Positions 6,439 through 61,964 of a stretch of DNA of 64,000 nucleotides are shown here, piece after piece (position 1 is the first letter of the stretch; each line of letters starts with the position of its first letter). The position numbers and the translations under genes were made by a program. Under the pieces are notes generated by a model, which saw only the letters and a list, made by a program, of their open reading frames with translations, searched no databases and was not told the DNA's origin. Source of the stretch: Clostridia bacterium (GTDB lineage: Bacteria; Bacillota; Clostridia; TANB77; CAG-508). Where the stretch lies: assembly GCA_045643465.1 (NCBI GenBank), contig JAZUKV010000021.1, positions 89,701 through 153,700 on the forward strand, written 5' to 3'.

Positions 6439-6450
6439 GAGGTGAGTTTT

Positions 6451-12500: not shown

Positions 12501-12642
12501 ACTTGCTTCATTAAAGAGATTTAAAGATGATGTTAAAGAAGTTACAAAAGGATATGAGTGTGGATGTCAAATTGAGAATTATAATGATCTTAAGGAAGAT
12601 GACGTTATAGAATTCTTTGTAATGGAAGAAGTTAAAAGATAA
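9574..12642 (+). CDS. infB: Translation initiation factor IF-2 with an expanded N-terminal region
   Basis: G-domain motifs [23 protein letters not shown]. The C-terminal IF-2 domains are present. TTG start follows GGGGTGA. Confidence 0.97.
10228..10524 (+). repeat. Asn-rich degenerate repeats inside infB
   Basis: About 100 codons of NN(R/K)(Y/F)NNDGNN-like units, for example [40 protein letters not shown]. Confidence 0.8.
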
Positions 12643-31977: not shown

Positions 31978-33225
31978 ATGTATAAAGAATTTGGAATAAA
32001 TGATGAAGTTTTAAAGTTATCAGAAAGAGTCGAAAAAGAGCTTTCTACAATTTTTGAAGATATTAATAAAAGATGTGAAGTAAATAGTTTAAAAGTATTA
32101 GAAGCTTTTAAAAAATATAATATTTCAGATATGCATTTTGGAAGTACTTCAGGATATGGGTATGGAGATGTTGGAAGAGATACAATTGAAAAAGTTTTTG
32201 CAGATATATTAGGAGCTGAAGATAGTGTAGTTAGAAGCCAATTTATTTCCGGGACACATGCTTTAACAGTAGCATTATTTGCGTTTTTAAGACCAAATGA
32301 CACATTACTAAGTATTTGTGGAAAACCTTATGATACTTTAGACGAGGTTATAGGAATTGTTGAAAATAAAAGCTCTTTGAAATCATTTGGTGTAAAATAC
32401 GAACAAATAGATTTAGTAGATGACGATTTTGATTATGATAAAATAATTGAAAGAGCAAGTAAAGGTAATATTAAAGTAATTGAAATACAACGCTCTAGAG
32501 GATATGCGTTAAGAAAAAGTATTACATTAGATAAAATGGAAAAAGCAATTAATGCGATAAGGTCTGTAAATAAAGATGTAATAATAATGGTAGATAATTG
32601 TTATGGAGAATTTGTTGATAGCAAAGAGCCTTTAGCAATTGGAGCAGATGTTATAGTTGGATCACTTATAAAAAATCTTGGAGGAGGAATAGCTCCTAAT
32701 GGTGCATATATTGCCGGTAAAAAAGAGCTAGTAGAGCTTGCAGCAGAAAGATTGACAGCCCCAGGACTTGGAAAAGAAGTTGGACCAACATTAGGAATAA
32801 ATAAGTCAATTTTGCAAGGTTTATTTATGGCTCCTTCAGTAGTAGCGAGTAGTTTAAAAACTGCTATTTATGCAAGCAAAATGTTAGAAGAGCTAGGATA
32901 TAAAGCAGTTCCAAGATTTAATGAGAAGAGATCAGACATAGTTCAAACAATTGAGTTTGGAGATAAGGAAAAGTTAATAAAATATTGTCAGGGCATTCAA
33001 ATGGGATCACCAGTTGATTCAAATTCAATACCTGAGCCATGGGATATGCCAGGATATACAGATCAAGTTATAATGGCTGCAGGTGCTTTTACACAGGGGT
33101 CATCAATTGAACTTTCTTGTGATGCACCAATAAGGCCACCATATTTAGCATTTATGCAAGGTGGACTAACTTTTGAATATGGAAAACTTGGAGTTATGAA
33201 AGCAATTTCAAATATAATTATGTAA
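31978..33225 (+). CDS. ynbB: PLP-dependent methionine gamma-lyase-family protein (YnbB / aluminium-resistance type)
   Basis: Motifs SGYGYGDVGRD, FISGTHAL and GSLIKNLGGGIAPNG, typical of this family as I recall it. Confidence 0.7.
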   Translation: MYKEFGINDEVLKLSERVEKELSTIFEDINKRCEVNSLKVLEAFKKYNISDMHFGSTSGYGYGDVGRDTIEKVFADILGAEDSVVRSQFISGTHALTVALFAFLRPNDTLLSICGKPYDTLDEVIGIVENKSSLKSFGVKYEQIDLVDDDFDYDKIIERASKGNIKVIEIQRSRGYALRKSITLDKMEKAINAIRSVNKDVIIMVDNCYGEFVDSKEPLAIGADVIVGSLIKNLGGGIAPNGAYIAGKKELVELAAERLTAPGLGKEVGPTLGINKSILQGLFMAPSVVASSLKTAIYASKMLEELGYKAVPRFNEKRSDIVQTIEFGDKEKLIKYCQGIQMGSPVDSNSIPEPWDMPGYTDQVIMAAGAFTQGSSIELSCDAPIRPPYLAFMQGGLTFEYGKLGVMKAISNIIM

Positions 33226-33291
33226 AAAATTTGAATGAAATGGATATTGATTAGATAGTATACATTTTTTAAATTCATATATAAATTGTAA

Positions 33292-33335
33292 TTGAGCTTC
33301 AATAATTTTTATAAGAAGCTCAATATTTGTATTTA
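33292..33335 (+). terminator. Stem-loop / terminator after ynbB
   Basis: ttgagcttc (33292-33300) pairs with gaagctcaa (33315-33323), followed by tatttgtattt. Confidence 0.5.
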
Positions 33336-33356
33336 TGAAAATAATAGGAGGAAAAA

Positions 33357-34664
33357 GTGAAAGTTGTAGTTATTGGTGGTGGACCAGCAGGAATATTAAG
33401 TGCTATTTCTGCTAGACAAAGTGGAGATGATGTAATACTTTTAGAAAAAAATGAAACATTAGGTAAAAAATTATTAATAACAGGAAAAGGAAGATGCAAT
33501 ATTACTAGTGGCATAGAAATTTCAAAATTTATTAATAATATTCCAGGAAATGGCAAGTTTTTATTTAGTGCATTTCAAAATTATACCAATGATGATATTA
33601 TTAAATTGTTAAATAAGCATGGTGTAAAAGTTAAAGAAGAGCGTGGAAATAGAATTTTTCCAGTAAGTGATAAATCAAAAGATGTATTAGATGCATTATA
33701 TAAAGAGCTAAGAGCGCTTAATGTAAAAGTTTATACTAAGACTAAAGTAGAAAAAATATATACAGAGCAAAGTTCAGTAAAAAAAGTAGAATATTCTTAT
33801 TTAGGTAATAAATATATATTAGATTGCGATAAAGTAATATTAGCAACCGGTGGAAAAAGTTATCCAACAACAGGCTCAACTGGAGATGGATATGAAATAG
33901 CAAAAAATCTTGGACATACAATAACTGATATAAGGCCTTCGCTTATACCAATTGTAGCTAATGATAATATCAATGTCGAAAGTGTTAATTTAAGAGAATT
34001 TTTAACATCAAAAGATCTTTGCAAAAGTTTACAAGGTTTAAGTTTAAGAAATGTAAAAATAAGCATAGTAGATTTAGAAAAAAATAAAGTTATCTATGAT
34101 GATTTTGGAGAGCTGTTATTTACTCATTTTGGGGTGTCAGGTCCAACAATTTTGAGTGCTACAGCACATATAATTAGATATAAAAATATCTCAGATTTAT
34201 TAAAAAATGGCAAAATAGTTTTAAAAATAGATTTGAAACCAGCTTTGGATAATGAAAAAATAGATACTAGAATATTAAGAGATTTCGAAAATGCTAAAAA
34301 TAAATTGTATAAAAATAGTTTAGATGAATTATTACCACAAAAATTAATAAGTCCAATAATTTCTTTATCTGGTATAAATCAAAATAAAATGGTAAATGAA
34401 ATATCAAAAAAGGAAAGAGCTGTATTAGTAAATTTATTAAAGAATTTTACAATTACAATTAGTGGATTTAGACCTGTGGAAGAAGCAATTATTACAGCTG
34501 GTGGAGTTAATATAAAAGAAATAAATCCTAAAACGATGGAATCAAAAATTATTAAGGGGCTATTTTTTGCAGGTGAAATTATAGATGTAGATGCTTATAC
34601 AGGTGGATTTAATTTACAAATTGCATATTCAACAGGTTATACAGCAGGATTAAATAATGAATAA
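33357..34664 (+). CDS. NAD(P)/FAD-dependent oxidoreductase, HI0933/BaiN-like
   Basis: VVIGGGPAG, GKGRCNIT, and the C-terminal GGFNLQ motif. GTG start follows AGGAGG. Confidence 0.8.
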   Translation: MKVVVIGGGPAGILSAISARQSGDDVILLEKNETLGKKLLITGKGRCNITSGIEISKFINNIPGNGKFLFSAFQNYTNDDIIKLLNKHGVKVKEERGNRIFPVSDKSKDVLDALYKELRALNVKVYTKTKVEKIYTEQSSVKKVEYSYLGNKYILDCDKVILATGGKSYPTTGSTGDGYEIAKNLGHTITDIRPSLIPIVANDNINVESVNLREFLTSKDLCKSLQGLSLRNVKISIVDLEKNKVIYDDFGELLFTHFGVSGPTILSATAHIIRYKNISDLLKNGKIVLKIDLKPALDNEKIDTRILRDFENAKNKLYKNSLDELLPQKLISPIISLSGINQNKMVNEISKKERAVLVNLLKNFTITISGFRPVEEAIITAGGVNIKEINPKTMESKIIKGLFFAGEIIDVDAYTGGFNLQIAYSTGYTAGLNNE

Positions 34665-34679
34665 TATATAGAGGTGGAT

Positions 34680-35330
34680 ATGAATATATTTAAAACAATT
34701 TTGGAAAAAGAAATTTCAGCAGAAATAGTTGAAAAAAAGTCTAAATTTATTGCTACTTTATTTTTTATAGAATCTGAAGAAGAAGCTGAAGAAAAAATTA
34801 AATGTATTAAAAAGAAATATTTTGATGCTAAGCATAATTGTTTTGCTTATATTGTTAATAATAATAATACGATAAATAAAAGATTTAGTGATGATGGAGA
34901 GCCAAGTGGAACAGCAGGAGCACCTATGTTAGAAATATTAGAAAAGCAAGGGCTAGGGAATGTTTTGGTAATAGTTACAAGATATTTTGGAGGAATATTA
35001 TTAGGTACAGGTGGACTTGTAAGGGCATACTCAGATGCTCTAAAAAAAGCTTTAGAAAAAGCCAGTATAGTGATTCAAGAGCATGGATATGAAATTAATG
35101 TAGAATTAAATTATTCAGATTTAGAGAATTTTAAATATTATTGTGGAAAAAATGGGATAAGAATATTAAATCAAGAATACTTAGAAACAGTAATTTGTAA
35201 AATCGAATTAAATGATGTAAAAAAATCTGAGTTAGAGCAACAGTTAAAAAATCAGAATGTATTAAGAATTATAAGCATCGACATTATTCGACAAAAGAAC
35301 ATATCAGTGTTGTCGAATAATGTAGATTAA
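34680..35330 (+). CDS. yigZ: YigZ/IMPACT-family protein (UPF0029)
   Basis: Motifs KSKFIA, AKHNCFAY, DDGEPSGTAG and VTRYFGGILLG. Confidence 0.8.
   Translation: MNIFKTILEKEISAEIVEKKSKFIATLFFIESEEEAEEKIKCIKKKYFDAKHNCFAYIVNNNNTINKRFSDDGEPSGTAGAPMLEILEKQGLGNVLVIVTRYFGGILLGTGGLVRAYSDALKKALEKASIVIQEHGYEINVELNYSDLENFKYYCGKNGIRILNQEYLETVICKIELNDVKKSELEQQLKNQNVLRIISIDIIRQKNISVLSNNVD
35282..35322. promoter_or_regulatory. Paired inverted Spo0A boxes
   Basis: cattaTTCGACAa (35282-35294) and tTGTCGAAtaatg (35310-35322) are perfect 13-nt inverted repeats 15 nt apart. Each contains the TGTCGAA 0A-box consensus. Confidence 0.55.
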
Positions 35331-35366
35331 TATCGCACGAAACCTTGCAAAATATGTGTTTTTATA

Positions 35367-35395
35367 TTGCAATACAATAAAAAAGAAAGTATAAT
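35367..35395 (+). promoter_or_regulatory. Sigma-A-type promoter candidate for spo0A
   Basis: TTGCAA (35367-35372), 17-nt spacer, TATAAT (35390-35395). Confidence 0.45.
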
Positions 35396-35429
35396 CTGGA
35401 ATGTAAAAAAGATATTAGGAGGTTTTAAT

Positions 35430-36254
35430 GTGAATAAAAAAATAACAGTATTAATTGCAGATGATAATAGTGAATTTTCTGCAACATTAGCTAGCTACGT
35501 AAGAGCTGAGGATGATTTAGAATTAATAGGAACCGCAAGAGACGGGATAGAAGCTTTTGATTTTATTAAAAATGCTGAACCAGATGTTGTACTGTTAGAT
35601 GTAATAATGCCAAGATTAGATGGATTAGGGGTTTTAGAAAAAATTAATGAAAGCGGTATGACAAAAATGCCTATGTGCATAATGTTATCTGCTGTAGGAC
35701 AGGATAAAATAACACAAAGGGCAATTAACTTAGGTGCCCAATATTATATAGTAAAACCTTTTGAAATAGATGTATTAATCAAAAGAATAAAAGATTTAAA
35801 ATATTTTCAACCCATGCCAGTGAATAATAGTAATTCATATGTTAGCAGAGAAATAAAAACAACGTACATAGAATTACCGGTAACTGAAATGAAAAACGAG
35901 GATAATTTAGAAGCTTTAGTAACAAATATAATTCATGAGATAGGAGTTCCAGCACATATTAAAGGATATCAATATTTAAGAGAAGCCATAATGATGGTAG
36001 TTACTAATATTGATATTATAAATCAAATAACAAAACAATTATATCCAGAAATAGCACATAAATATCACACAACACCATCTAGGGTTGAACGTGCAATTCG
36101 TCATGCGATAGAAGTTGCTTGGGGAAGAGGTCAACAAGATGTTGTAGAAACTATATTTGGTTATACAATTTCAGCTGCAAAAGGCAAACCAACAAACTCA
36201 GAATTTATAGCTATGATTGCTGATAAATTAAGATTAGAATTAAAAACAGCATAA
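35430..36254 (+). CDS. spo0A: Sporulation master regulator Spo0A
   Basis: Receiver domain ([22 protein letters not shown]) plus the diagnostic C-terminal domain ([32 protein letters not shown]). GTG start follows AGGAGG. Confidence 0.95.
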
Positions 36255-36258
36255 AAAA

Positions 36259-36299
36259 ATTCTTCTTTTACTCAATAGAGTAAAAGGAGAATTTTTTTT
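36259..36299 (+). terminator. Intrinsic terminator after spo0A
   Basis: 15-bp stem attcttcttttactc / gagtaaaaggagaat with loop aata and T8. Confidence 0.75.
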
Positions 36300-36319
36300 A
36301 TTTTATGAATAAAAAGTAT

Positions 36320-36435
36320 TGTAGATTAATGGGTAATAAAAAATGTAAAACTTTGTAAAATTTTGTATATTTCAAAAAATAATTTTAATGTATAAAATGT
36401 AAATATTTTCTTGATATTTTATGTATTGTAGTGTA
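36320..36435 (+). promoter_or_regulatory. Phased TGTA(A/T)A motif array
   Basis: Nine TGTA tetramers, starting at 36320, 36344, 36354, 36364, 36389, 36398, 36422, 36427 and 36432. Three consecutive 10-bp units sit at 36344-36373. Confidence 0.4.
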
Positions 36436-36439
36436 TTAT
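36411..36439 (+). promoter_or_regulatory. Promoter candidate for the 36486-43095 gene string
   Basis: TTGATA (36411-36416), 17-nt spacer, TATTAT (36434-36439). Confidence 0.45.
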
Positions 36440-36485
36440 ATAATAAGTTAAAATATTCAATACTGGGAATTGAAAGGAGAAAAAA

Positions 36486-36956
36486 ATGTATAAATTTAAG
36501 GGAAAATGTATAATAATAATTGCAACAGTAATATTATTATTAACATCTACAGTTTCTTTAGCAACAGAAAATAATATAATAGAAACGAATAATACTACAA
36601 CGACAAGTGTAAAAAAAGATACAACAAGTGAACAAAATTTAACTCAAGAAAGTACATCATCAAAGATAGTTCAAATAAGAGATGATCAATTAAAAACTAT
36701 AGAAGATTATAAAGCTAAATATGGATCTGATACATATGGATTAATAGCATATATATTACATGTAATTCAATGGTGGAGTATACCACTAGGACTATTATTT
36801 TTAGCAATCAGTGCAATTTTCCAATATGTAATTGGATTAAAGAGATTAGATTTAAGGGATAAAGGGTTTAATTCAATGATTGCGTTGGTAACAATAATTA
36901 TAATTTGCCAAGTGCTACCATTGATATTTGCTATTGTTGTAAAATCAAATGATTAA
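36486..36956 (+). CDS. Small secreted/membrane protein (signal peptide, Thr-rich linker, two C-terminal TM helices)
   Basis: N-terminal KGKCIIIIATVILLLTSTVSLA, then NNTTTTSVKKDTTSEQ, then hydrophobic stretches WWSIPLGLLFLAISAIFQYVIG and MIALVTIIIICQVLPLIFAIVV. Strong SD. Confidence 0.6.
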   Translation: MYKFKGKCIIIIATVILLLTSTVSLATENNIIETNNTTTTSVKKDTTSEQNLTQESTSSKIVQIRDDQLKTIEDYKAKYGSDTYGLIAYILHVIQWWSIPLGLLFLAISAIFQYVIGLKRLDLRDKGFNSMIALVTIIIICQVLPLIFAIVVKSND

Positions 36957-36975
36957 AAAATAAGGAGTTAACAAA

Positions 36976-37833
36976 ATGAGAGTACTTTTTGCAGTAAGTA
37001 ATAATGAAAATAGCAATACAGATATTGTAGATGCTATATTAAATGAATATCAAAGAATGTATAAGAAGATAATATCATATAAAAGAGCTTTCTATTATGA
37101 TGCCATTATAAATGAGATAAAATCATCAAGAGACAATCAATATGACATAATTGTTATAAGTGAAGATCTAGAAAAAAAACCAGAAGATGGATATGATGCA
37201 GAAGATAGAAACTTATATAGGCATATGGATGAAATTACAGATGAAGCATATAAAGAAGATGGAACAGGGATACCTATCATTTTAATATGTAATGATCGAA
37301 GAAGTGAAAGGGATGCAATTATTCCACAATTATTTTCATTAGGAATGTATAATATTTTATATGGTAAAGATAGGACTATTCAAAATGTATGTGCTTTAAT
37401 TGAAAGACCAAGGAACAAGAAAAAAGCTAAAATGGTGTATAATATTAATCCAAAAGCGGCAGTATATGTAGCTGAAAATGCAGAGAAAAAAATAAGCGAT
37501 AAAGAATTATTGAGTATATTAAAATTTTTTAATTTAAATAAAGCAAATACAGAGAAATGTGTAAAAGGATTCTCAAAATTATATAAAGAATATAAAGAAG
37601 ATCAATTAAATTTTTTAATAGAAAATTTACCAATTGATATAAAAATAATTTTAGAAGAAAATTCAAAGGAATATTTAAGTGTGGCGAAAGAGCGTGTTAT
37701 AAGAAAATCAGAGCTAAATAATGCAAGCACTTTAGTAGAAAAAAATTTAACAAGAGATTTAAATAGTAGTGGCTCAGAAGTAATAATACCAGGACAACAA
37801 ACAAAGAGGAGCTTATTCGGAAAGAAAAACTAA
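36976..37833 (+). CDS. Receiver-like (pseudo-REC) domain protein, paralogous to the N-terminus of the next gene
   Basis: MRVLFAV...YDIIVISEDLE...IPIILICND...ERPRNKKKAKMVYNI aligns with MKVLFAI...YDRIVITDDFDE...IPIIYVGAN...NKPRTKQEAKEYYQI of the 37873 product. Confidence 0.55.
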   Translation: MRVLFAVSNNENSNTDIVDAILNEYQRMYKKIISYKRAFYYDAIINEIKSSRDNQYDIIVISEDLEKKPEDGYDAEDRNLYRHMDEITDEAYKEDGTGIPIILICNDRRSERDAIIPQLFSLGMYNILYGKDRTIQNVCALIERPRNKKKAKMVYNINPKAAVYVAENAEKKISDKELLSILKFFNLNKANTEKCVKGFSKLYKEYKEDQLNFLIENLPIDIKIILEENSKEYLSVAKERVIRKSELNNASTLVEKNLTRDLNSSGSEVIIPGQQTKRSLFGKKN

Positions 37834-37872
37834 ATAGGATAAAACGTAAAAAATAAACGGAGGTAAAAACTA

Positions 37873-40800
37873 ATGAAAGTGTTATTTGCAATAAAAGATA
37901 ATAACAAAGTTGTTGATAGTCTAGTACGTAAATATCAAAAAGATTTTAATAAAGATTTAAAATATAAGGAAGTAAAAAGTTTTGGAGCAATTACAAGTGA
38001 ATTGCAAAATAATAATTATGACAGAATCGTTATAACAGATGATTTTGATGAAAAATATAATAAGTTAGATGACAAAAATGAAAGAATAATAAAAAAACTT
38101 AAAAATATTGTTTCTGTAGCCAAAAATAAATCTAACAAAAATATTCCTATAATATACGTAGGTGCAAATAAAAAAATGATAAAATCATTATATGAAATGG
38201 AAATATATAATGGTGTTTTAGGAAATGAAAAAATAAAATCTAATATATATGAATTAATAAATAAACCAAGAACAAAGCAGGAAGCAAAAGAATATTATCA
38301 AATTAGCTCTGTAGATGGTAAAAAAAATGAAGGAAAAACAGTAAAAAAGGAAATGCCAAAAGAAGTAAATAAAAAAAGCGAAAATGTTAAAAAAGATACT
38401 ACTATTAAAGTAAAAAAACAAAAAATAAATCCAGAAAGTATAACAGAAAAAGAAATACAAGAGCCTAAGAAAAGAGGAAGAGGAAGACCTCGTAAAGAAG
38501 TAAAGGAAATTCCTGAAGAGGCAGTAGTTGAGGTAAAAAGAGGAAGAGGAAGACCTCGTAAAAATCCTATTGAAGTTGTTGAAGAAAATCAAAAAAATAA
38601 TAAAAAGACAGTAAAGGCTGTTAGCAAAAAAACAGAAAAGCCAATTAAATCTGAAAAAACGGTAAAAACTGAGCAAAAAGAAAATAAAGTAAAAAAAGAA
38701 GTCAATAAAAAAGAAAATGTAAAAAAAGAATTAAAAGCAACGGATTCTAAAAAAGGAAATTCAGCTAAAAAGAAAGTTTCTGATGAAAAATTAGTTAAAA
38801 AAGCAGATAGCTCAGATAAAAAGCAAAAAGTAAAAAGTGCAGCAGGAATAGCTGCAACAGCAGTATTGGGAGCTGAAATAGTAAAGAAATCAAATAAAAA
38901 GAAAGAGCTTGATGAAGAAGATGATGATGATTGGTTTGATTTTGATGAAATAAATGATAATTTAAAAGAAGACATAAGTGCAAAGAATGAAAAAGATGCT
39001 GAAAAAGGAAAATTTATTGATATTGATGATGATTTTGAAATAGAAGATGATGATAATGATTTCGAGATTGAACTAGATGATGATGAAAATGAAATTATTG
39101 ACGCTAACGATGATTTTGAATTAGAAGATGACGACGAAGAGCAAGAAATTGTTGATGATGACGATGATTTCGAGTTAGAAGATGACGACGAGGAAGAAGA
39201 AATTGTTAATGATGACTATGATTTCGAGTTAGAAGATGACGACGAGGAAGAAGAAATTGTTGATGATGACGATGATTTCGAAATAGAAGATGACGACGAG
39301 GAAGAAGAAATTGTTGATGATGACGATGATTTCGAGTTAGAAGATGATGATGATATCGAATTAGATGATGACGATGAGATAGAGCTTGATGAAGAAGATG
39401 ATGATATCGAATTAGATGATGACGATGAGATAGAGCTTGATGAAGAAGATGATGATATCGAATTAGATGATGACGATGAGATTGAGCTTGATGAAGAAGA
39501 TGATGATATCGAATTAGATGATGACGATGAGATTGAGCTTGATGAAGAGGATGATGATATCGAGTTAGATGATGACGATGAGATAGAGCTTGATGAAGAA
39601 GATGATGACATCGAGTTAGATGATGACGATGAAATTGAGCTTGATGAAGAGGATGATGATATCGAGTTAGATGATGATAATAAAGAAGACGACGATATTC
39701 TAAATCTAGATGACGAAGAAGAAGACGACGATATTCTAAATCTAGATGACGAAGAAGATGACGACGATATGCTAAATCTAGATGACGAAGAAGAAGACGA
39801 TGATATTCTAAATCTAGATGATGACGAAGAAGAAGACGATGATATTCTAAATCTAGATGATGACGAAGAAGAAAACGAAGAAGAAGAAATCGAACTAGAT
39901 GATGATAATGAAGAAGATGATGATATTCTAAATCTAGATGAAGATGACGATAATTTAAATTTTGATGATGAGCAAGATGAAGAGCTAAAAATAGATGATA
40001 CTGTATCAGGAATTAAAAATAAAAATTATATTCCTAATTATGATATATCAAAGCAATTAAATGAAATTGATGATGATGTTAAGATAGAAGATAAAAATGA
40101 AATAAGTATTATTAATAAAACAGAAGATATTGCTCTTACTGAAACAAATTTAAAAATTAATGAAGGTCAAAGAATAATTGCTTTTGTCGGAGCACATGGA
40201 AATGGAACATCATTTATTATAAATAATATGGCTCAATTGTTATCAGAGCAAGGAATAAAAACAGCAATATTAGATTTAACAAAAAATAAAAATTCATATT
40301 ATATTTATACTGAAAATGAAGAAAATTTAAGATCAATAGCTTATTCTTGCTTTGAAAAATTAGAGAGCGGAATATCAGATGGGATAAAAGTTTCAAAGAA
40401 TTTAACAGTATATACATCATTACCAACAACAGATAATGATATAGAAAATAAAGAAATGGCAATTAATACTTTACTAAACAACTATTCTTTGATATTATTA
40501 GATTGCGATTTTGATACAGATTTTGAATATTTTAAATTAGCACAAGAGCTTTACTTAGTACAATCATTTGATATTTTAACAATTCAACCAATAACATCAT
40601 TTGTAAAAAAATTAAAAATGAACAGTATAGTAAATGAAGAAAAATTTAAAATAATAATAAATAAAAGCTTATATGTAAGTGGAATAAATGAGCGAACAAT
40701 AGTTGCTGCAATGTCAGTATATAATTCTCCAGACACAACATACCAATTAGATTTATTTGATAGAAATAAAGTTGAATATTTTGAGATTCCTTTTGAAGAA

Positions 40801-40938
40801 AAAAATTATTCTAAATATTTGGATGAATTGGTAAAATGTAAATTGACATTAAGAGGATATACAAAAGGCTTATTAAATAGTTTTAATAAATTAGCTAAAT
40901 CAATATATCCAATAAATAAAAAGAAAAAATCAAAATAA
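37873..40938 (+). CDS. 1021-aa multidomain protein: pseudo-REC, Lys-rich region with 2 AT-hooks, ~360-aa polyacidic repeats, ParA/MinD/CpaE-like domain with degenerate Walker A
   Basis: The ORF is uninterrupted with a good SD (ACGGAGGT). It contains KKRGRGRPRK and KRGRGRPRK, D/E repeats, and a C-terminal domain RIIAFVGAHGNGTSF...ILDLT...LILLDCD...YLVQSFD in the order expected for a MinD/ParA fold. Confidence 0.7.
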   Translation: MKVLFAIKDNNKVVDSLVRKYQKDFNKDLKYKEVKSFGAITSELQNNNYDRIVITDDFDEKYNKLDDKNERIIKKLKNIVSVAKNKSNKNIPIIYVGANKKMIKSLYEMEIYNGVLGNEKIKSNIYELINKPRTKQEAKEYYQISSVDGKKNEGKTVKKEMPKEVNKKSENVKKDTTIKVKKQKINPESITEKEIQEPKKRGRGRPRKEVKEIPEEAVVEVKRGRGRPRKNPIEVVEENQKNNKKTVKAVSKKTEKPIKSEKTVKTEQKENKVKKEVNKKENVKKELKATDSKKGNSAKKKVSDEKLVKKADSSDKKQKVKSAAGIAATAVLGAEIVKKSNKKKELDEEDDDDWFDFDEINDNLKEDISAKNEKDAEKGKFIDIDDDFEIEDDDNDFEIELDDDENEIIDANDDFELEDDDEEQEIVDDDDDFELEDDDEEEEIVNDDYDFELEDDDEEEEIVDDDDDFEIEDDDEEEEIVDDDDDFELEDDDDIELDDDDEIELDEEDDDIELDDDDEIELDEEDDDIELDDDDEIELDEEDDDIELDDDDEIELDEEDDDIELDDDDEIELDEEDDDIELDDDDEIELDEEDDDIELDDDNKEDDDILNLDDEEEDDDILNLDDEEDDDDMLNLDDEEEDDDILNLDDDEEEDDDILNLDDDEEENEEEEIELDDDNEEDDDILNLDEDDDNLNFDDEQDEELKIDDTVSGIKNKNYIPNYDISKQLNEIDDDVKIEDKNEISIINKTEDIALTETNLKINEGQRIIAFVGAHGNGTSFIINNMAQLLSEQGIKTAILDLTKNKNSYYIYTENEENLRSIAYSCFEKLESGISDGIKVSKNLTVYTSLPTTDNDIENKEMAINTLLNNYSLILLDCDFDTDFEYFKLAQELYLVQSFDILTIQPITSFVKKLKMNSIVNEEKFKIIINKSLYVSGINERTIVAAMSVYNSPDTTYQLDLFDRNKVEYFEIPFEEKNYSKYLDELVKCKLTLRGYTKGLLNSFNKLAKSIYPINKKKKSK
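38470..38562 (+). repeat. Exact 27-nt direct repeat encoding the two AT-hooks
   Basis: aaaagaggaagaggaagacctcgtaaa occurs at 38470-38496 and again at 38536-38562. Confidence 0.85.
39100..39354 (+). repeat. In-frame 54-bp tandem repeat (~4.7 copies; DDDDDFELEDDDEEEEIV)
   Basis: Read directly from the DNA and its translation. Confidence 0.85.
39355..39678 (+). repeat. In-frame 51-bp tandem repeat (6 copies plus partial; IELDDDDEIELDEEDDD)
   Basis: Unit starts (atc) at 39355, 39406 and 39457 are exactly 51 nt apart. Copies are protein-identical and differ at synonymous sites. Confidence 0.9.
39685..39972 (+). repeat. In-frame 36-39-bp tandem repeat (~6 copies; EDDDILNLDDEE)
   Basis: Read directly from the DNA and its translation. 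Confidence 0.85.
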
Positions 40939-40956
40939 ATTTTGAAATATTGGTAG

Positions 40957-42078
40957 GTGAATAATTTGAATACTTCTATGATTGTATTAATATTTATACT
41001 TATATTATTATTAATAGTATTAGCCGTAATGGCGTTAAAGATATATACAATGGGCTTAAATTGTAAAAAATTAAAAAGTACAAGTCAAAGAGTAAATGCT
41101 TTAAGTATATTACAAGATTTTTTAGAAATAATAGGTAATAGTTCAGAGAATACACAAGAAAAGATGAATAAAATAAATGAAACATTAATTGAAAAATATG
41201 AAATTAAATATTCTACGATAGTTGTATTTGATGGAACAAATTATAATGTAGAAGCTTCAAATGTAAGTGAAAAACATTGGAAAATGTTTAAAGAGCTTCA
41301 TACACAGGAAATATTTATGGAGAGCATTAAAAATGCTACTCCTAAATATGTTACTGTAAAAAAGGAAGAAACATTACCATACTTAGATATGGAATTTGAA
41401 AGAGCAAAATCTGCAATATTCTTTCCATTATATGTAGACAATGTATATATAGGTTATTGGCTAATAGAAGGTAGCCAACCTCATGAATTTGATGCAAATG
41501 ATACAACTTTATTAAATGTAATAAAAAATAATATAACATATGCAATTAGAATTATTAAATCACAAAGAGTATTAGAAAATTTAGCAAGAATAGATACCAG
41601 AACAGGTTTATACACATATGAATATTTATTAGGAAGTGCAAGAAAAGTATTTGACAAATATCCAACATCTATAGTATCATTAATAAAAATTACAAATCTA
41701 GCTCAGATTGAAGAAAAAATAAGCAAAAAAGTAGCAGATGCGGTATTGAACAAATTTGTAAGCATAATAAAATCAAATTTGTCAACAGAGTATCTATTTG
41801 TTAAATATTCTGAAAACGAATATGCAATTGTTTTTTCCGGAATTGATATAGATGGAGTTGGTAATTTTTTGGAAGACCTAAAAAACACTATAGAAAAAAC
41901 AAAAATCAAAATTATTGGTGCACAAAAGGAAAGTATGAATGGACTTGCAATAGCTAGCAAACTAAATATTTATTTAACATCATATTACAAAGAAACATCA
42001 ATAGAAAGTGTTTTAAGTACATTAGGAAAATATCTAAATAATGCTAATTCAGAAGAAAGTGATATTACATGTGTATAA
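40957..42078 (+). CDS. Membrane-anchored GAF-like / degenerate GGDEF-domain protein
   Basis: N-terminal TM helix (MIVLIFILILLLIVLAVMAL). GGDEF-domain entry motif RIDTRTGLYTYEYL. The active-site position reads YSENEYAIVF instead of GG(D/E)EF. Confidence 0.65.
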   Translation: MNNLNTSMIVLIFILILLLIVLAVMALKIYTMGLNCKKLKSTSQRVNALSILQDFLEIIGNSSENTQEKMNKINETLIEKYEIKYSTIVVFDGTNYNVEASNVSEKHWKMFKELHTQEIFMESIKNATPKYVTVKKEETLPYLDMEFERAKSAIFFPLYVDNVYIGYWLIEGSQPHEFDANDTTLLNVIKNNITYAIRIIKSQRVLENLARIDTRTGLYTYEYLLGSARKVFDKYPTSIVSLIKITNLAQIEEKISKKVADAVLNKFVSIIKSNLSTEYLFVKYSENEYAIVFSGIDIDGVGNFLEDLKNTIEKTKIKIIGAQKESMNGLAIASKLNIYLTSYYKETSIESVLSTLGKYLNNANSEESDITCV

Positions 42079-42089
42079 GGAGGTAATGT

Positions 42090-42344
42090 ATGGCAACAGA
42101 TCAAACAGTAAGTTTTCACGTAGAAAGAGAAAAAAATATTAAGACAAAAGAAATTTTGAAAAATGTTTATCAAGCCTTGGAAGAAAAAGGATATAATCCT
42201 ATAAATCAAATAGTAGGATATATATTATCTGGAGATCCAACTTATATAACAAGTCATAACAATGCTCGAAATTTAATAAGAGAAGTAGAAAGAGATGAAT
42301 TATTAGAAATAATGGTTAAATCATATATAGGAATGGATGAATAA
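42090..42344 (+). CDS. ireB: IreB/UPF0297 family protein
   Basis: Motifs [27 protein letters not shown]. Conserved position upstream of ruvX. Confidence 0.85.
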
Positions 42345-42788
42345 ATGAGGATATTAGGTATTGATTATGGAGATGCTAGAGTAGGAGTATCTATGACAGA
42401 TCCGTTAGGAATTACAGCGCAAGGAATAGAAACCATTCATCATAAGGGCAATGACAAAATTGTTTTAAAAAGATTAGAAGAGCTTATAAATCAATACGAA
42501 ATTAAAACAATTGTTATAGGTATGCCAATAAATATGAATGGAACTAAGACCGAAAGAGCAGAAGTTACAGAAAAATTTATACATAAGTTAAAATGTAAAT
42601 TTGGTAAAATAAACATAGAAAGAATAGACGAAAGACTAACAACGGTAGAAGCACATAAAACTATGAATTATTTAAATGTAAATAAGTTTAAGAAAAGAGG
42701 CATAGTAGATACAATATCTGCAGTCTATATTCTTGAAACCTATATAAGAAAAGCAAAAATAGGAGAGGAGAAAAATAATAATGAGTAA
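42345..42788 (+). CDS. ruvX: Holliday-junction resolvase-like nuclease RuvX (YqgF)
   Basis: MRILGIDYGDARVGV, IVIGMPINMNG and DERLTT motifs. Confidence 0.9.
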   Translation: MRILGIDYGDARVGVSMTDPLGITAQGIETIHHKGNDKIVLKRLEELINQYEIKTIVIGMPINMNGTKTERAEVTEKFIHKLKCKFGKINIERIDERLTTVEAHKTMNYLNVNKFKKRGIVDTISAVYILETYIRKAKIGEEKNNNE

Positions 42789-43095
42789 AGATTTTTTTGG
42801 AGAAGAGGAAGTTGATAACAAAGATTTAGTATTGGATGATGACAATTTATTTGTATTAAATGATGAAGATGGAAACGAAATCAAATTCGAGTTTTTAGAT
42901 TTAATAGAATTAGAAAACGAAAACTATGTTGTTTTATATCCAGTTGAAAATGATAGTGAAGAAGTTGTTATTTTACGAGTTCAAGAAACAGAAGGCGAAT
43001 TAGATGAATATTTAAGTGTTGACGAAAAAACACTACAAGCAGTATATGCAATATTTAAAGAAAAATTCAAAGATGTTTATGATTTCCAAGATTAA
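42781..43095 (+). CDS. DUF1292 family protein (YrzB-like)
   Basis: Acidic 104-aa protein with motifs such as DEDGNEIKFEFLDLIELENENYVVL. Conserved position after ruvX. Confidence 0.8.
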   Translation: MSKDFFGEEEVDNKDLVLDDDNLFVLNDEDGNEIKFEFLDLIELENENYVVLYPVENDSEEVVILRVQETEGELDEYLSVDEKTLQAVYAIFKEKFKDVYDFQD

Positions 43096-43110
43096 AAATT
43101 AGTATAAAAC

Positions 43111-43156
43111 GCACAAAAATATTTGATGTTTTAGTTAAATATTTTTGTGCTTTATT
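43111..43156 (+). terminator. Intrinsic terminator
   Basis: 14-bp stem gcacaaaaatattt / aaatatttttgtgc followed by tttatt. Confidence 0.75.
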
Positions 43157-43736: not shown

Positions 43737-45044
43737 GTGAAAAAGAATTACACATTAAAACTTGTATTAGCAATGTTAGTCGTTGTGTTAGTATCCTTAG
43801 TATCATTTGTAGGTGTATACAAAGGAAAAAATCTATTAAAAGAATATTCTTTTGGAAAGGATTTTGAACAAAGAAAAGTGTTTATTTTTTCAGGAGAAGT
43901 AATTGAAGAGGAGAAAAAAGAAGAAAAAACAGAAGAATCTTCAAACGAAAATAATGGAGAAGAAAACGCAAGTCAAGAAGAGAATAAGAATGAAGATACA
44001 GAAATTTCAGAAGAGGAAAAAGCTGAAAAAAATAAGAAAAGCTTTAAAGAAGCAAAAAATATAATTGCAAAAAGATTAACTGCAATGAAATCAGAAGAAT
44101 ATGATATAAGATTAGATGAAAAAACAGGTAAATTAGTTATAGAGGTACCTTCAGATATAGATTCATCTTATATAAGTGAAATTGTAACTGTAGGTAAAGT
44201 ACAAATAATAAATGAAAGTAATAAAGATGTTATAGTAGATACAAATGGATTTAAAAGTGCATCTGCTGCATATGATACAACATCTACAACAAAACCAATA
44301 GTTGCATTTAATGTAAAATTTAGTAAAGATGGAAAAAAGGTATTAAAAGAATGTAATAAAATGGATACTGATGATGAAGGAAATCAAACAGAATCAACAT
44401 TTGCATTTGTAATAGATGGACAAACATTATATTCAGCTAAAGCTTCAAGCTTTGCAGAAGCAGCTGAAAAAGGTGAATTAGAATTAATGTTAGGCCAAAA
44501 TGATGAAGGTATAGAGCTAGAAAAAGATTATCAAGAAGCATTAGCAATAACAGCTATAATAAAATCTGGAAAAATCCCAGTAAATTATGAGATAGAAGAT
44601 CTTAAATATGTTAATTCAAATATAAGCATAAAAACAATTGTAATTATATCAATTATTGTAGGAGCTTGCCTATTATTATTTGCAACATATAAATTTAAAG
44701 TTAAAGGTGCATTATCAGTATTATCATTAGTAGGACTTTTGGCTTCAATATTATTAGTTTTAAGATATACTAATGTAAAAATAACTTTATTTACAGTATT
44801 AGGACTAGCTATAGTTATGTTATTTAATTATATATTTGTAATCAAAAATTTGAATAGTGGAAAAAAATACAAAGAAGATTTAGTAGAATTGTTAAATATT
44901 TTAATACCATGTATTATAGTTGCAATAATATTCTGTTGTGCACCATATTTACAATTAGCAAGTTTTGGAATGGCAATATTCTGGGGAATATTAGTAACTT
45001 GTATTTATGATACAATAATTACTAAAATATTTTTAGATAAATAA
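43737..45044 (+). CDS. SecD-like membrane protein (divergent)
   Basis: N-terminal TM helix. The periplasmic-type domain shows SecD P1-like patterns (IIAKRLTAMKSEEYDIRLD...LVIEVP, FAFVIDGQTLYSA, GKIPVNYEIE). Five C-terminal TM helices follow. Confidence 0.5.
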   Translation: MKKNYTLKLVLAMLVVVLVSLVSFVGVYKGKNLLKEYSFGKDFEQRKVFIFSGEVIEEEKKEEKTEESSNENNGEENASQEENKNEDTEISEEEKAEKNKKSFKEAKNIIAKRLTAMKSEEYDIRLDEKTGKLVIEVPSDIDSSYISEIVTVGKVQIINESNKDVIVDTNGFKSASAAYDTTSTTKPIVAFNVKFSKDGKKVLKECNKMDTDDEGNQTESTFAFVIDGQTLYSAKASSFAEAAEKGELELMLGQNDEGIELEKDYQEALAITAIIKSGKIPVNYEIEDLKYVNSNISIKTIVIISIIVGACLLLFATYKFKVKGALSVLSLVGLLASILLVLRYTNVKITLFTVLGLAIVMLFNYIFVIKNLNSGKKYKEDLVELLNILIPCIIVAIIFCCAPYLQLASFGMAIFWGILVTCIYDTIITKIFLDK

Positions 45045-45065: not shown

Positions 45066-45917
45066 ATGAAGAAAAAACTATGTATTGCATCAATATTAGT
45101 TGTTATTATTGCTATAATTATTGTTGCAGTTAAAGGCTTCAATGTTGAATTAAAATACAAAGATCATAAAGTTGTTAATGTTCAAGTTGGAACAGAATAT
45201 AATGAAAAAGAAATAAATTCTATAGTAAAAGAAGTATTAGGTAAAGAAAAATTTGAGATAGAAAAATCAGGTATTTATGGAGATGAATTTATTATAAATA
45301 CTGAAAATATTTCTGATGAACAAATTGAATCAATTAAAAATAAAATTAATGAAAAATATAATGTAAAACAAAAAATTTCTGTAAAGATTAAAGAAGGATT
45401 TAATGTTGATGATGTTAAATCTATAGCAAATGAAACTTTCGGTAAAGAAGATATGATTGTTGAAAAATCAAAGGATTCTGAGAGTTATGCTACAATAGAA
45501 ACAGGAATTGTTTCAGATGCTGATTTAGAAAAATTAAATACAAAAATAAATGAAAAATTCGAATTAACAAACAAAGTATCATCAATAAATGTTTATCAAA
45601 AAATAGAAAATACAGATATACCTAAAGTTAAAATAACAGATATGTTAAAACAATATGTATTATATACAGTAATTTCATTTATTGTAATATTTATATATTT
45701 TATAATTAGATTTATAAAATTAGGAATTAAAAATGTTGCATTAGATGTAATAAAAGCATTTGCATTTTCAGAATTATTATATGCAGCAATTATTGCAATA
45801 GTTAGAATTCCAGTTAATAAATTAAGTTTCTTAGGAGCATTTGCTATATATATTGCAATAGCAACATTCTTAAACAAAAAATTTATTAATGAATCTGTAA
45901 AAAAGGTATCGAAGTAA
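45066..45917 (+). CDS. SecF-like membrane protein (divergent, short)
   Basis: N-terminal TM helix plus GFNVELKY (compare the GiDFtGG region), then IYFIIRFIKLG. The C-terminal half of canonical SecF is not recognisable. Confidence 0.4.
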   Translation: MKKKLCIASILVVIIAIIIVAVKGFNVELKYKDHKVVNVQVGTEYNEKEINSIVKEVLGKEKFEIEKSGIYGDEFIINTENISDEQIESIKNKINEKYNVKQKISVKIKEGFNVDDVKSIANETFGKEDMIVEKSKDSESYATIETGIVSDADLEKLNTKINEKFELTNKVSSINVYQKIENTDIPKVKITDMLKQYVLYTVISFIVIFIYFIIRFIKLGIKNVALDVIKAFAFSELLYAAIIAIVRIPVNKLSFLGAFAIYIAIATFLNKKFINESVKKVSK

Positions 45918-60971: not shown

Positions 60972-61964
60972 ATGAAGACTTTCGCTAAAAAAGCAATAGC
61001 ATGTGTATTGCTAGCTAGCATGTTACTAGTGATGTTGCAAAGTATTTCCTTTGCAAAAAGTGAAAAAGTACAAATGATAAAAAAAGGAGAAAATGAATAC
61101 ATATTATATGTAGCAGATTTGTTGAACACAGAATTTGAATTCGCATTTTCAAACAATTCAAACGAAGATAAGGCAAATTTAAAATTTCAAAATTCAGCAA
61201 AAGATTCTTTAGATATTGGAAATAATATAGCTTATGTTGATAATGCTTTATATGAAGAATATTTTAAGAATAAAGAAAATACATATTTATGGATTAAGGA
61301 TGAATCTGATTATCAATTAGAAGCAAAAAAAATAGATTTATCAGATTCTTTAACAGAAGATGAAGTAAAAAAATGTAATAATATAACAAAAACTATAAAT
61401 GCTAAGGTAGGAGAAAAAGAGCTACCACAAGAAAATGTAGATGGAGTAAAAATTACTAGAAGAATTAATACGCTAATAATTGAAGATAGTAAATTAAAAA
61501 ATCTTCAATATAGTATAGTAAAAAGTAAGCCTGATACAGATTTTGCTAAGTTGATAGAATTAGCGAATAAATTGAATGAGCTAAAAGATGACAATATGCT
61601 TAATAAAATATCAACATATAAGCAATTTTATAGTATGTATGAAAAATTAATGCCAACTACTTGGATGAATGTTGAAAATAGTACTATATTACAACCAAAT
61701 GATTCTAAGGAGAATGATCAATATGTTGTTTTCCTAAAAGCACAAGATGAAAATGGAAAAACAATTACAGATTTACAAATATTAACATGTACTAATGCAT
61801 ATAGTGCAGAATTTGAAAATCAAAAAATAGTGAAAAAAGAAGTATCAAAAATGCCTGTAACAGGTGATAGCTATATATTAATAATAATAGCAGGGATATT
61901 AGTTTTACTAATAGCTATTTTTGGTATACTTAAAATTAAAAACAAAAAAACTATGGGTAAATAG
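60972..61964 (+). CDS. Secreted cell-wall-sorted protein with MPVTG sorting signal
   Basis: Signal peptide, then a C-terminal MPVTG (61851-61865), a hydrophobic helix and a KIKNKKTMGK tail. Confidence 0.6.
   Translation: MKTFAKKAIACVLLASMLLVMLQSISFAKSEKVQMIKKGENEYILYVADLLNTEFEFAFSNNSNEDKANLKFQNSAKDSLDIGNNIAYVDNALYEEYFKNKENTYLWIKDESDYQLEAKKIDLSDSLTEDEVKKCNNITKTINAKVGEKELPQENVDGVKITRRINTLIIEDSKLKNLQYSIVKSKPDTDFAKLIELANKLNELKDDNMLNKISTYKQFYSMYEKLMPTTWMNVENSTILQPNDSKENDQYVVFLKAQDENGKTITDLQILTCTNAYSAEFENQKIVKKEVSKMPVTGDSYILIIIAGILVLLIAIFGILKIKNKKTMGK

Follow-up and report, generated by a model that had tools for sequence, protein, structure and literature searches.

An operon that we find no described counterpart for lies in the 64,000-nucleotide stretch of Clostridia bacterium contig JAZUKV010000021.1 analysed here (the window). 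It encodes a small membrane protein (P1), a short receiver-like protein (P2), a large protein whose C-terminal domain has a ParA/MinD fold lacking the lysines that define that family (P3) and a membrane-anchored degenerate GGDEF protein (P4), and it continues into ireB, ruvX and DUF1292. In most genomes the P2-like and P3-like parts form a single polypeptide, normally of about 800 residues, referred to below as the big protein. With a probability of roughly 0.4, we read the big protein as a ParA/MinD-like scaffold that does not hydrolyse ATP and joins AT-rich DNA to a site on the membrane, serving as a nucleoid-to-membrane tether or landmark; its DNA binding, its docking at the membrane through P1 and P4, the absence of ATP turnover and its cellular role are all points that we infer. 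No paper or curated family describing these proteins was found, and the operon thus appears undescribed, although its folds are known. Apart from one automatic 'MinD-like ATPase' label, members of the family are annotated as hypothetical.

A constant operon leading into ireB, ruvX and DUF1292

The genes and transcription signals of the locus are arranged as follows.

35367-36254, + strand: spo0A (TIGR02875, E = 4e-112)
36254-36297, + strand: terminator-like hairpin closing the spo0A unit, a 20-pair stem and then a T run, directly after the spo0A stop at 36254
36406-36450, + strand: promoter region, with -35 TTGATA at 36411-36416, a 17-nucleotide (nt) spacer and -10 TATTAT at 36434-36439
36486-36956, + strand: P1, 156 amino acids (aa), small membrane protein
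36976-37833, + strand: P2, 285 aa, pseudo-receiver and five-helix domain
37873-40938, + strand: P3, 1021 aa, pseudo-receiver, AT-hooks, acidic tract and ParA/MinD fold
40957-42078, + strand: P4, 373 aa, transmembrane anchor and degenerate GGDEF domain
42090-42344, + strand: ireB (family match, E = 1e-39)
42345-42788, + strand: ruvX (family match, E = 2e-40)
42781-43095, + strand: DUF1292 (family match, E = 2e-12)
43111-43150, + strand: terminator-like hairpin (predicted) closing the seven-gene unit

An earlier note made from the sequence of this DNA had described a four-gene block directly downstream of spo0A, and its coordinates, gaps, terminators and promoter-like site all proved correct on re-derivation. 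The gaps P1-P2, P2-P3 and P3-P4 measure 19, 39 and 18 nt and that between P4 and ireB 11 nt, and no + strand terminator is predicted between the hairpins at 36254-36297 and 43111-43150. Sites of the class TTGATA-17-TATTAT are not significant by themselves, since 97 were observed against 83 expected in this DNA of 26% GC. However, the extended motif TTCTTG[C/A]TATTTT-N9-TATTGTAT[G/T]ATATAATAAGT lies ahead of P1 in 66 of 73 related loci, in most cases at a distance of 45-95 nt from the start of P1, and the flanks TTTTC...ATTTT and ATAATAAGT are likewise conserved. Judged by these elements the promoter of the operon is predicted to be of the sigma-A type. When a stricter form of the pattern was applied, 67 matches were obtained upstream of P1 and none within 300 nt before ireB. 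No riboswitch or other known RNA was found in the leader by comparison with Rfam.

Gene order was surveyed with tblastn in 84 TANB77-type loci, wherever the contig allowed, and the order P1, receiver-like part, ParA-like part, P4, ireB, ruvX, DUF1292 is constant in all 84 (loci are given below by their survey numbers, L001 and so on). The trio ireB-ruvX-DUF1292 follows directly in each of these and in four distant loci as well. Median gaps across the loci are 4 nt between P1 and the big gene, 24 nt between the big gene and P4 and 15 nt between P4 and ireB, and in most loci the P1 stop codon lies 3-4 nt from the start of the big gene. The fixed order and tiny gaps bear out the co-occurrence that the earlier note had proposed to look for, and the apparent read-through into ireB-ruvX-DUF1292 is strongly supported by the linkage in every lineage together with the lack of a recurrent promoter before ireB. 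Comparative evidence for a single operon, which is thus strongly supported, is as strong as it can be short of transcript data.

The P2-like and P3-like parts form one open reading frame (ORF) of 733-1702 aa in 68 loci, and separate P2 and P3 genes with a duplicated N-terminal domain are confined to the window and its close relatives L001, L008, L009 and L011. The usual form of the system is therefore three genes, and the 'four genes' of the earlier note, correct for the window, represent a derived state in which P2 and P3 are no longer fused. The base composition of the block is that of the flanking DNA and no plasmid or phage relatives were matched, which argues that it is not a mobile element.

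A ParA/MinD-fold domain without the defining lysines

Sequence searches of the four proteins against Pfam, NCBIfam, PADLOC and the PDB placed, above chance, the GGDEF domain of P4 alone, and with Rfam added to these searches the earlier statement that the block belongs to no described system was borne out. The domains of P3, and the active-site motif of P4 discussed further below, are located at the following positions.

38473-38562, + strand: AT-hooks RGRGRPRK of P3, residues 201-208 and 223-230
38905-40032, + strand: polyacidic tract of P3, about residues 345-720, ~375 residues, net charge about -240
40168-40902, + strand: ParA/MinD-fold (SIMIBI P-loop) domain of P3, with a degenerate Walker A motif
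40189-40212, + strand: P-loop GAHGNGTS of P3, residues 773-780, canonical lysine replaced by threonine
41809-41823, + strand: active-site motif SENEY of P4, residues 285-289

The C-terminal ~280 residues of P3 were modelled with AlphaFold at a predicted local distance difference test (pLDDT) score of 86.6, and a Foldseek search of the PDB with this domain returned Borrelia ParA, MinD, FleN, FlhG, Soj and NifH at E-values of 6e-9 to 1e-7, each with probability 1.00 and 13-19% identity, and with TM-scores of up to 0.68 (query) and 0.79 (target). None of the curated Pfam or NCBIfam models for such proteins (CbiA, AAA_31, ParA, MipZ and similar) matched P3 at E <= 1, and the sole sequence or profile match in the PDB was the bacterial tyrosine kinase (BY-kinase) CapB of Staphylococcus, at E = 1e-3 to 3e-3. 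In the CapB alignment the G-T-S of P3 pairs with the G-K-S of the kinase, from which we conclude that the Walker lysine has been replaced. Model, Foldseek matches and CapB alignment together confirm the ParA/MinD-like domain without a Walker lysine that had been read from the sequence.

Across the family the P-loop is GTSKNGTS in 59 of 72 members of the main group, and a lysine at its fourth position is present in 68 of 72, those of the window's subclade not being among them. Glycines and serine of the P-loop do not vary, nor do the Walker-B-like aspartates, and this argues for a retained, structured pocket. These residues and the fold are what the domain shares with MinD, FleN, FlhG, ParA and Soj; it differs from them in that both lysines of the KGGxxGK[S/T] motif are absent, that identity is low and that a profile of the family retrieves no ordinary members. 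That profile recovered 432 proteins at E <= 1e-3 among 1.84 billion representative proteins, a number so small that the family forms a discrete island apart from ordinary ParA/MinD proteins. Unlike those proteins, moreover, the domain ends a giant multidomain protein and has no MinC/MinE- or ParB-like gene adjacent to it.

A C-terminal tail, FSxxMNxTLNKMKxxY, is conserved in most members of the main group, where it follows a flexible linker and occupies the position at which MinD carries its membrane-targeting helix. The tail might serve for membrane targeting, as a helix like that of MinD, or as a peptide that binds a partner, two possibilities between which a hydrophobic-moment calculation had little power to tell, since the approximate MinD and FtsA reference sequences themselves scored poorly. 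P3 of the window does not have the tail and ends in YPINKKKKSK.

The hallmark of the ParA/MinD family is a deviant Walker A motif, KGGxxGK[S/T], with a signature and a catalytic lysine, and its members are dimers that depend on ATP and act on nucleoid or membrane by means of their C-terminal regions (PMC11407121). The loss of both lysines from a domain that has kept its fold and pocket makes a static scaffold likelier than a cycling ATPase. TadZ is likewise thought to be static and not to cycle.

AT-hooks and an acidic tract between the folded domains

P3 consists, in order, of a pseudo-receiver domain (residues 1-146), a lysine-rich basic block, two AT-hooks, the polyacidic tract and the ParA/MinD-fold domain. 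The basic block around the hooks (residues 161-320) has a net charge of about +27. The Pfam AT_hook model reaches only E = 0.16 on P3, below its cut-off, as is usual for this 13-residue model, and two GRP[RK] motifs are present in 65 of 72 family members. The acidic tract has almost no lysine or arginine, with none at all across residues 401-600, and is encoded by tandem DNA repeats across 39046-39941 (54 nt x 5.6, 51 nt x 7.2 and 36 nt x 7.2). Two AT-hooks, a polyacidic tract and a receiver-like domain paralogous to that of P2 had been noted previously in P3, and all three were confirmed, the first two by the charge profile and the motifs and the last by comparison of the two domains (E = 6e-20).

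An acidic stretch follows the hooks throughout the main group, where it is mostly modest (~100 residues); a strong expansion is confined to the window's subclade and to L012, L036 and L056. The window's subclade thus differs from the rest in four respects: the position-4 lysine is lost, the tail is lost, the acidic tract is expanded several-fold and the gene is split. The acidic regions of the main group repeat a short motif, hydrophobic-Pro-Gly-hydrophobic and then acidic residues (LPGFEEDEDD, TELPGLDDDEEDDE, DLFGLGSDE), which was located at ~9400-10300 of L004, at ~9614-10000 of L002 and at residues 400-480 of the fused protein of L074; its counterpart in the tract of the window is F-E-L, I-E-L or L-N-L between runs of Asp/Glu. 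This may be a repeated docking motif.

HMGA proteins and Myxococcus CarD are characterised by AT-hooks flanked by an acidic region, and in 2010 CarD was called essentially the only prokaryotic HMGA-like example (PMC2919716). The big protein has this composition, with R-G-R-P cores in a basic context beside a highly acidic region. The number of hooks is two, compared with three in HMGA2 and four in CarD, and the acidic part here reaches 350 or more residues. The module also differs from CarD in being the internal linker of a ParA-like scaffold and not an RNA-polymerase-binding transcription factor, and in being present in hundreds of Clostridia species.

P2 and the pseudo-receiver domain

P2 corresponds to the N-terminal part of the big protein of most genomes, and its N-terminal domain is paralogous to that of P3 (30% identity). 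The AlphaFold model of P2 (pLDDT 77.9) has a flavodoxin-like (beta-alpha)5 domain at residues 1-150 and a five-helix domain at residues 175-236, followed by a disordered tail. Its best structural matches in the PDB are the receiver (REC) domains of ComE (E = 1.2e-3), RcsB and PleD, all at E >= 1e-3 and mixed with other flavodoxin-like folds such as dehydroquinase and the wing domain of AdiA. A search of the PDB with a P2 profile found nothing, and Pfam Response_reg did not match P2, although it scores E = 8e-23 on the adjoining Spo0A. Only the acidic pair after beta3 (E63-D64) of the receiver signature is conserved in the P2 family, the other positions reading VSN after beta1 and Cys after beta4, with no conserved Lys after beta5. 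Since the REC fold is weakly matched and one of four signature positions is kept, we regard the domain as a pseudo-receiver at best; the previous label 'receiver-like' holds at the level of the fold, and fails at that of family membership and signature residues.

P1, a membrane protein with a conserved cytoplasmic loop

P1 begins with a cleavable signal peptide (SLA|TE in the window, VYA|T as the family consensus). A variable linker rich in Thr, Ser and Asn leads to a conserved juxtamembrane segment, after which comes a two-helix hairpin. Alignment of 23 orthologues showed that its best-conserved parts are the segment before helix 1, YG..TYG...YSIP, and a 12-residue interhelix loop with the consensus G-[IL]-[RK]-[KR]-L-D-x-R-D-K-G-F; invariant positions are L121, D122, G127, S98-I99-P100, Q142 and P145. 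By the positive-inside rule the loop is predicted to face the cytoplasm. No Pfam, NCBIfam or PDB family, TrbC/VirB2 included, fitted P1 and its 23 orthologues, and the search of the PDB with a P1 profile gave only noise. ABC2_membrane, which matched 8 of the 23 orthologues (best E = 5.6e-6), and scattered other hits were rejected as hydrophobic-hairpin bias, because no family was consistent across the orthologues. The resemblance of P1 to a TrbC/VirB2-type pilin, which had been suggested in architecture only, was not extended by any profile match: signal peptide and two transmembrane helices are shared, with neither homology nor linkage to type IV secretion, whose genes are absent nearby in Pfam scans of the window's ORFs.

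P4, a degenerate GGDEF protein

P4 has a transmembrane anchor at residues 8-30, a central domain at residues 40-200 and a GGDEF domain at residues 206-364. Basic residues follow the anchor, and the remainder of the protein is therefore probably cytoplasmic. The GGDEF match lies above the Pfam gathering cut-off (E = 1.3e-6) and recurs in 23 of 23 orthologues (best 2e-12), and a profile search of the PDB gave E = 1.4e-11. Together with the motif SENEY these scores confirm the degenerate GGDEF domain recognised earlier. In most relatives the motif that aligns with GGEEF has the consensus MGPKF, the metal-binding DxD position reads K-I-x-N, its aspartates being lost, and the RxxD I-site is absent, the five residues before the motif being S-T-E-Y-L or S-N-E-Y-F. 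Several positions are nonetheless invariant across the orthologues. The GAF-like character formerly given to the central domain is not established, GAF_2 matching at E = 0.3 in the window and weakly in just 5 of 23 homologues. Matches of P4 to HTH_60 and to the N-terminus of EzrA fall on the anchor and the next helix and were treated as meaningless.

NCBIfam GdpS matched P4 weakly (E = 2.8e-4). Like GdpS and the GGDEF* domain of BcsE, P4 keeps the fold and has lost the catalytic motif; it differs from them in its single N-terminal anchor, which replaces a multi-pass sensor, in its lack of an I-site, in its unassigned central domain and in being clade-restricted and always located between the big protein and ireB.

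Distribution and the most widely conserved core

In database searches the ParA-like domain had 532 relatives, and a one-genome-per-species scan revealed at least 590 genomes that carry it. The operon is thus a stable part of the chromosome in a large clade of very low-GC gut Clostridia. Of the 80 best-scoring carrier genomes nearly all are metagenome-assembled genomes (MAGs) of uncultured gut Clostridia; among the carriers are Clostridium sp. CAG:273 and CAG:571, Candidatus Merdicola and one complete chromosome of 1.70 Mb. Judging by the GTDB names CAG-273, CAG-571 and Merdicola, we take the carriers to belong to the order TANB77; TANB77, CAG-508 and Merdicola also turn up together in one paper.

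The most divergent big proteins measure 714-980 aa and have retained pseudo-receiver, helical domain and ParA-like domain, the last with a P-loop of the form GANK[AS]GT[ST]. Their linkers are Glu/Lys/Ala/Gln-rich or Ser/Gly/Tyr-rich, with neither AT-hooks nor an acidic tract, and they end in KKGLFG-type tails. The four loci of this distant subfamily contain a P1-like gene, the big gene, ireB, ruvX and DUF1292, and have no P4; the P1-like products are clear homologues of P1. On this comparison the most widely conserved core is two genes, P1 and the big protein.

The 120 best database matches measure 234-487 aa, compared with true lengths of ~750-1700 aa, since gene callers give C-terminal fragments. 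Runs of N were seen inside the big gene of L002 (8229-9760) and L004 (~9717-10340), and an exact-match protein lies on a contig of 2.9 kb. Tandem repeats are the reason why the big gene is broken or truncated in most metagenome assemblies, and as a result of these breaks databases systematically record the family as hypothetical proteins of 300-480 aa.

A proposed scaffold between nucleoid and membrane

The scaffold that we favour would be a static one and not an ATP-cycling machine. Its AT-hooks would hold the big protein on the AT-rich chromosome, almost anywhere given a genome of 26% GC, and the folded ParA-like and pseudo-receiver domains would mediate self-association and membrane docking. 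Docking would take place on the cytoplasmic loop that is the best-conserved part of P1, the gene of which is translationally coupled to the big gene; in this clade P4, the membrane-anchored pseudo-GGDEF protein, may take part as well. The acidic tract could serve as a spacer, an internal competitor or a partner platform for basic ligands. Such a tether or landmark would be co-expressed with RuvX and with IreB, a substrate in the PASTA-kinase pathway that acts on peptidoglycan synthesis. The proposal in the earlier note of a nucleoid- or envelope-associated positioning module stands to the extent that the domain make-up, with AT-hooks, a ParA/MinD fold and membrane partners, fits a scaffold of this kind.

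A precedent for one part of this arrangement is the Vibrio hub protein HubP, whose acidic repeats bind ParA-like proteins (PMC8789113). HubP and FimV resemble the big protein in their large Asp/Glu-rich acidic repeats and in their association with ParA/MinD-like proteins and the membrane, although there is no sequence homology. HubP carries its acidic repeats on a LysM- and transmembrane-anchored protein that recruits separate ParA1, FlhG and ParC, whereas here acidic repeats and ParA-like domain are on one soluble polypeptide and the membrane parts are separate small proteins.

Several observations weigh against the proposed tether. Every carrier is an uncultured MAG. P3 of the window has neither the conserved C-terminal tail nor the position-4 P-loop lysine, so the window's version may work differently or be decaying. 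As the distant subfamily has no AT-hooks or acidic tracts, DNA tethering cannot be the ancestral core function. Some ParA/MinD proteins carry lysines placed elsewhere (PMC11407121), and the relocated lysine in GTSKNGTS could, by analogy, support ATP hydrolysis. The central domain of P4 (residues 40-200) has no assigned fold, and the adjacency of ireB may reflect merely a convenient housekeeping promoter.

A bolder form of the tether hypothesis would have pseudo-receiver, pseudo-MinD and pseudo-GGDEF proteins build a hydrolysis-independent tether that organises or segregates the chromosome across a whole order of gut Clostridia with reduced genomes and couples chromosome position to wall control by IreB and the PASTA kinase; it would also be the first widespread prokaryotic HMGA-like module outside the myxobacteria and would perhaps replace Min, Noc or ParAB. 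We consider this joint claim distinctly unlikely.

Alternative functions

The alternative that survives best, though we still judge it unlikely, is that the operon encodes an envelope-homeostasis adaptor, which would organise or sense wall synthesis at the membrane and signal into the PASTA-kinase pathway by way of its IreB/ReoM branch. The PASTA-kinase substrate IreB/ReoM governs the stability of MurA and peptidoglycan synthesis (PMC8528326), and its gene lies directly downstream in every lineage, including those without AT-hooks and P4, so that this explanation fits the distant subfamily that has no DNA-binding module. P1 has a conserved extracytoplasmic segment, and genes for the cell wall are frequent upstream, among them PBP5-type carboxypeptidases (L085, L087), a G5-SH3-glucosaminidase (L004) and SLH and SH3 proteins (L088). 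This is guilt by association only, however: ireB-ruvX-DUF1292 is a housekeeping trio across the Firmicutes and its adjacency may mean only a shared promoter, the operon contains no kinase, phosphatase or Mur gene, and a purely envelope role would leave the AT-hooks difficult to account for.

A cyclic di-GMP (c-di-GMP) or other nucleotide module, in which P4 would act as a receptor with a degenerate GGDEF domain and control the ParA-like protein in the manner of FleQ-FleN or of BcsE-BcsQ in cellulose secretion, seems to us improbable. Degenerate GGDEF domains are known to act as nucleotide receptors, the genuine GGDEF homology of P4 holds across all 23 orthologues with several invariant positions, and the best structural matches of the ParA-like domain include FleN. 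Nevertheless, without GG[DE]EF, RxxD and the metal aspartates the usual contacts of P4 with c-di-GMP or GTP are missing, Pfam scans of operon and window revealed neither an intact cyclase nor an intact phosphodiesterase, and the absence of P4 from the distant subfamily marks it as an add-on and not as part of the core.

Somewhat less probable again is a localisation factor of the TadZ/CpaE type, serving a Tad/Flp pilus whose genes lie elsewhere in the genome and to which P1 would contribute a pilin-like subunit. TadZ and CpaE combine an N-terminal atypical, non-phosphorylatable receiver-like domain with a ParA/MinD-fold domain that has an atypical Walker A motif, and are presumed to act as landmarks. 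The big protein follows this two-domain logic at the level of the fold, and TANB77 genomes hold a conserved Tad-like pilus cluster (PMC11680825). This cluster is clade-restricted and comprises CpaB, TadZ-like and CpaE-like proteins, TadA, a fused TadB/C and seven pilin-like genes; it is not in the window, and one of its pilins has been reported to enhance anti-PD-1 therapy in mice (PMC11680825). The cluster is, however, already provided with a TadZ-like protein of 231 aa and a CpaE-like protein of 280 aa (PMC11680825). CpaF/TadA, TadB/C, CpaB and prepilin peptidase are absent both from the window and from eight loci annotated with Pfam; no Pfam model for TadZ or CpaE gave a match at E <= 1; the 50 best structural matches do not include TadZ; and the signal-peptidase-I site and two-helix hairpin of P1 are unlike a Flp prepilin. 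In the window itself, Pfam scans of long, non-overlapping ORFs agree with the earlier note that Tad/Flp, flagellar, ParB and cellulose-synthase genes are absent. The big protein further differs from TadZ/CpaE in having no Pfam or NCBIfam membership and no linked tad or cpa genes, in the ~300-900 aa disordered linker with AT-hooks and acidic tract between its domains, in its partners P1 and P4 and in its fixed operon with ireB-ruvX-DUF1292. The TadZ/CpaE resemblance noted previously therefore extends to architecture and to nothing beyond it.

That the operon is a sporulation module under Spo0A control is very improbable. The block lies directly downstream of spo0A in the window, L001, L008, L009 and L011, spo0A is within 5 kb in L087, and carriers have sporulation genes (spo0A, and in L004 SpoIIID, YunB and SipL). 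Spo0A adjacency is nevertheless absent from ~70 of 84 loci, in which the upstream gene is an amylase, a glucosaminidase or another gene, and both spo0A and yigZ are upstream only in the window's subclade (L001, L008, L009, L011). A terminator separates spo0A from the block, a search for Spo0A boxes found no 0A box in the window's upstream region, and the downstream partners are vegetative housekeeping genes. The -35 and -10 elements of the P1 promoter, being of sigma-A type, are unlike the consensus of sporulation sigma factors. Genes for a Met-gamma-lyase-like protein, an HI0933-like flavoprotein, YigZ and Spo0A, which in the window lie upstream of the operon, are found in L087 downstream of DUF1292. 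The blocks of Met-gamma-lyase-like and HI0933-like genes (with yigZ and spo0A in some) span 31978-36254 in the window, 8031-10479 in L085, 11405-13908 in L086 and 11550-15685 in L087. This block and the operon are old neighbours that have been rearranged and not a functional unit, which explains the occasional adjacency of spo0A. The tie to Spo0A-controlled development that the earlier note had thought possible thus finds no support in the subclade-only adjacency, the sigma-A-type promoter and the missing 0A box.

Least probable of all is a pseudo-BY-kinase that acts with a membrane modulator and descends from a system of polysaccharide co-polymerase and tyrosine kinase, since CapB as the only PDB sequence match, a small membrane protein as partner and tyrosine-rich C-terminal linkers in the main group are outweighed by the missing Walker lysine needed for kinase activity, by structural neighbours that are ParA, MinD and FleN with no BY-kinase in the top 50, by Tyr/Asn-rich linkers that look like low-GC bias because they are absent from the higher-GC distant subfamily, by a P1 topology (cleaved signal peptide, both termini outside) that is not of the Wzz type, and by the lack of linked polysaccharide genes. 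An ordinary trio of Wzz, BY-kinase (AAA_31/CbiA) and CpsB phosphatase was seen at 2880-5128 of L086, 3 kb upstream of the operon, and canonical P-loop relatives therefore coexist with the degenerate one.

Other genes of the window

Pfam identified the other long ORFs of the window as ordinary housekeeping genes, among them tuf, mutS2, rimP-nusA-infB-rbfA, truB, pth and RNase G, and further as LonC, tsaE/B, groEL, a two-component system, lepA, ruvB and a sortase. The LonC/LonB-like protease (AAA_32, LonC_helical, Lon_C) is encoded at 19746-22130 on the - strand and adjoins rimI-tsaB-tsaE. The IF-2 gene (9574-12642) encodes 1022 aa, of which ~445 precede the first IF2_N domain recognised; it is one more gene of this low-GC genome with a long N-terminal extension.

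Just downstream of DUF3792, at 43737-45044 and 45066-45917, are two conserved ORFs of 435 and 283 aa that belong to no Pfam family and have equivalents of 451 and 280 aa in L001; the product of the first starts with a membrane helix, continues with a low-complexity stretch rich in Glu and Lys and closes with a multi-helix C-terminus. Four further ORFs of 180-350 aa (6442-7497, 1255-1806, 60972-61964 and 63055-63693) have no Pfam match at E <= 1e-5. That at 60972-61964 overlaps the start of the sortase gene and may encode a sortase substrate or partner.

Implications for the TANB77 order and the ParA/MinD family

Very little is known of the cell biology of TANB77. It is an uncultured gut order with small genomes and has been linked to the response to cancer immunotherapy (PMC11680825). 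The occurrence of the operon in at least 590 species-level genomes, with a near-invariant layout and among core housekeeping genes, suggests that it probably serves a basic cellular function. The ParA/MinD world would gain a member without the lysines that define the family, and the HMGA design of AT-hooks and an acidic tail, thought to be near-absent in bacteria, proves to be common in a major lineage of the gut.

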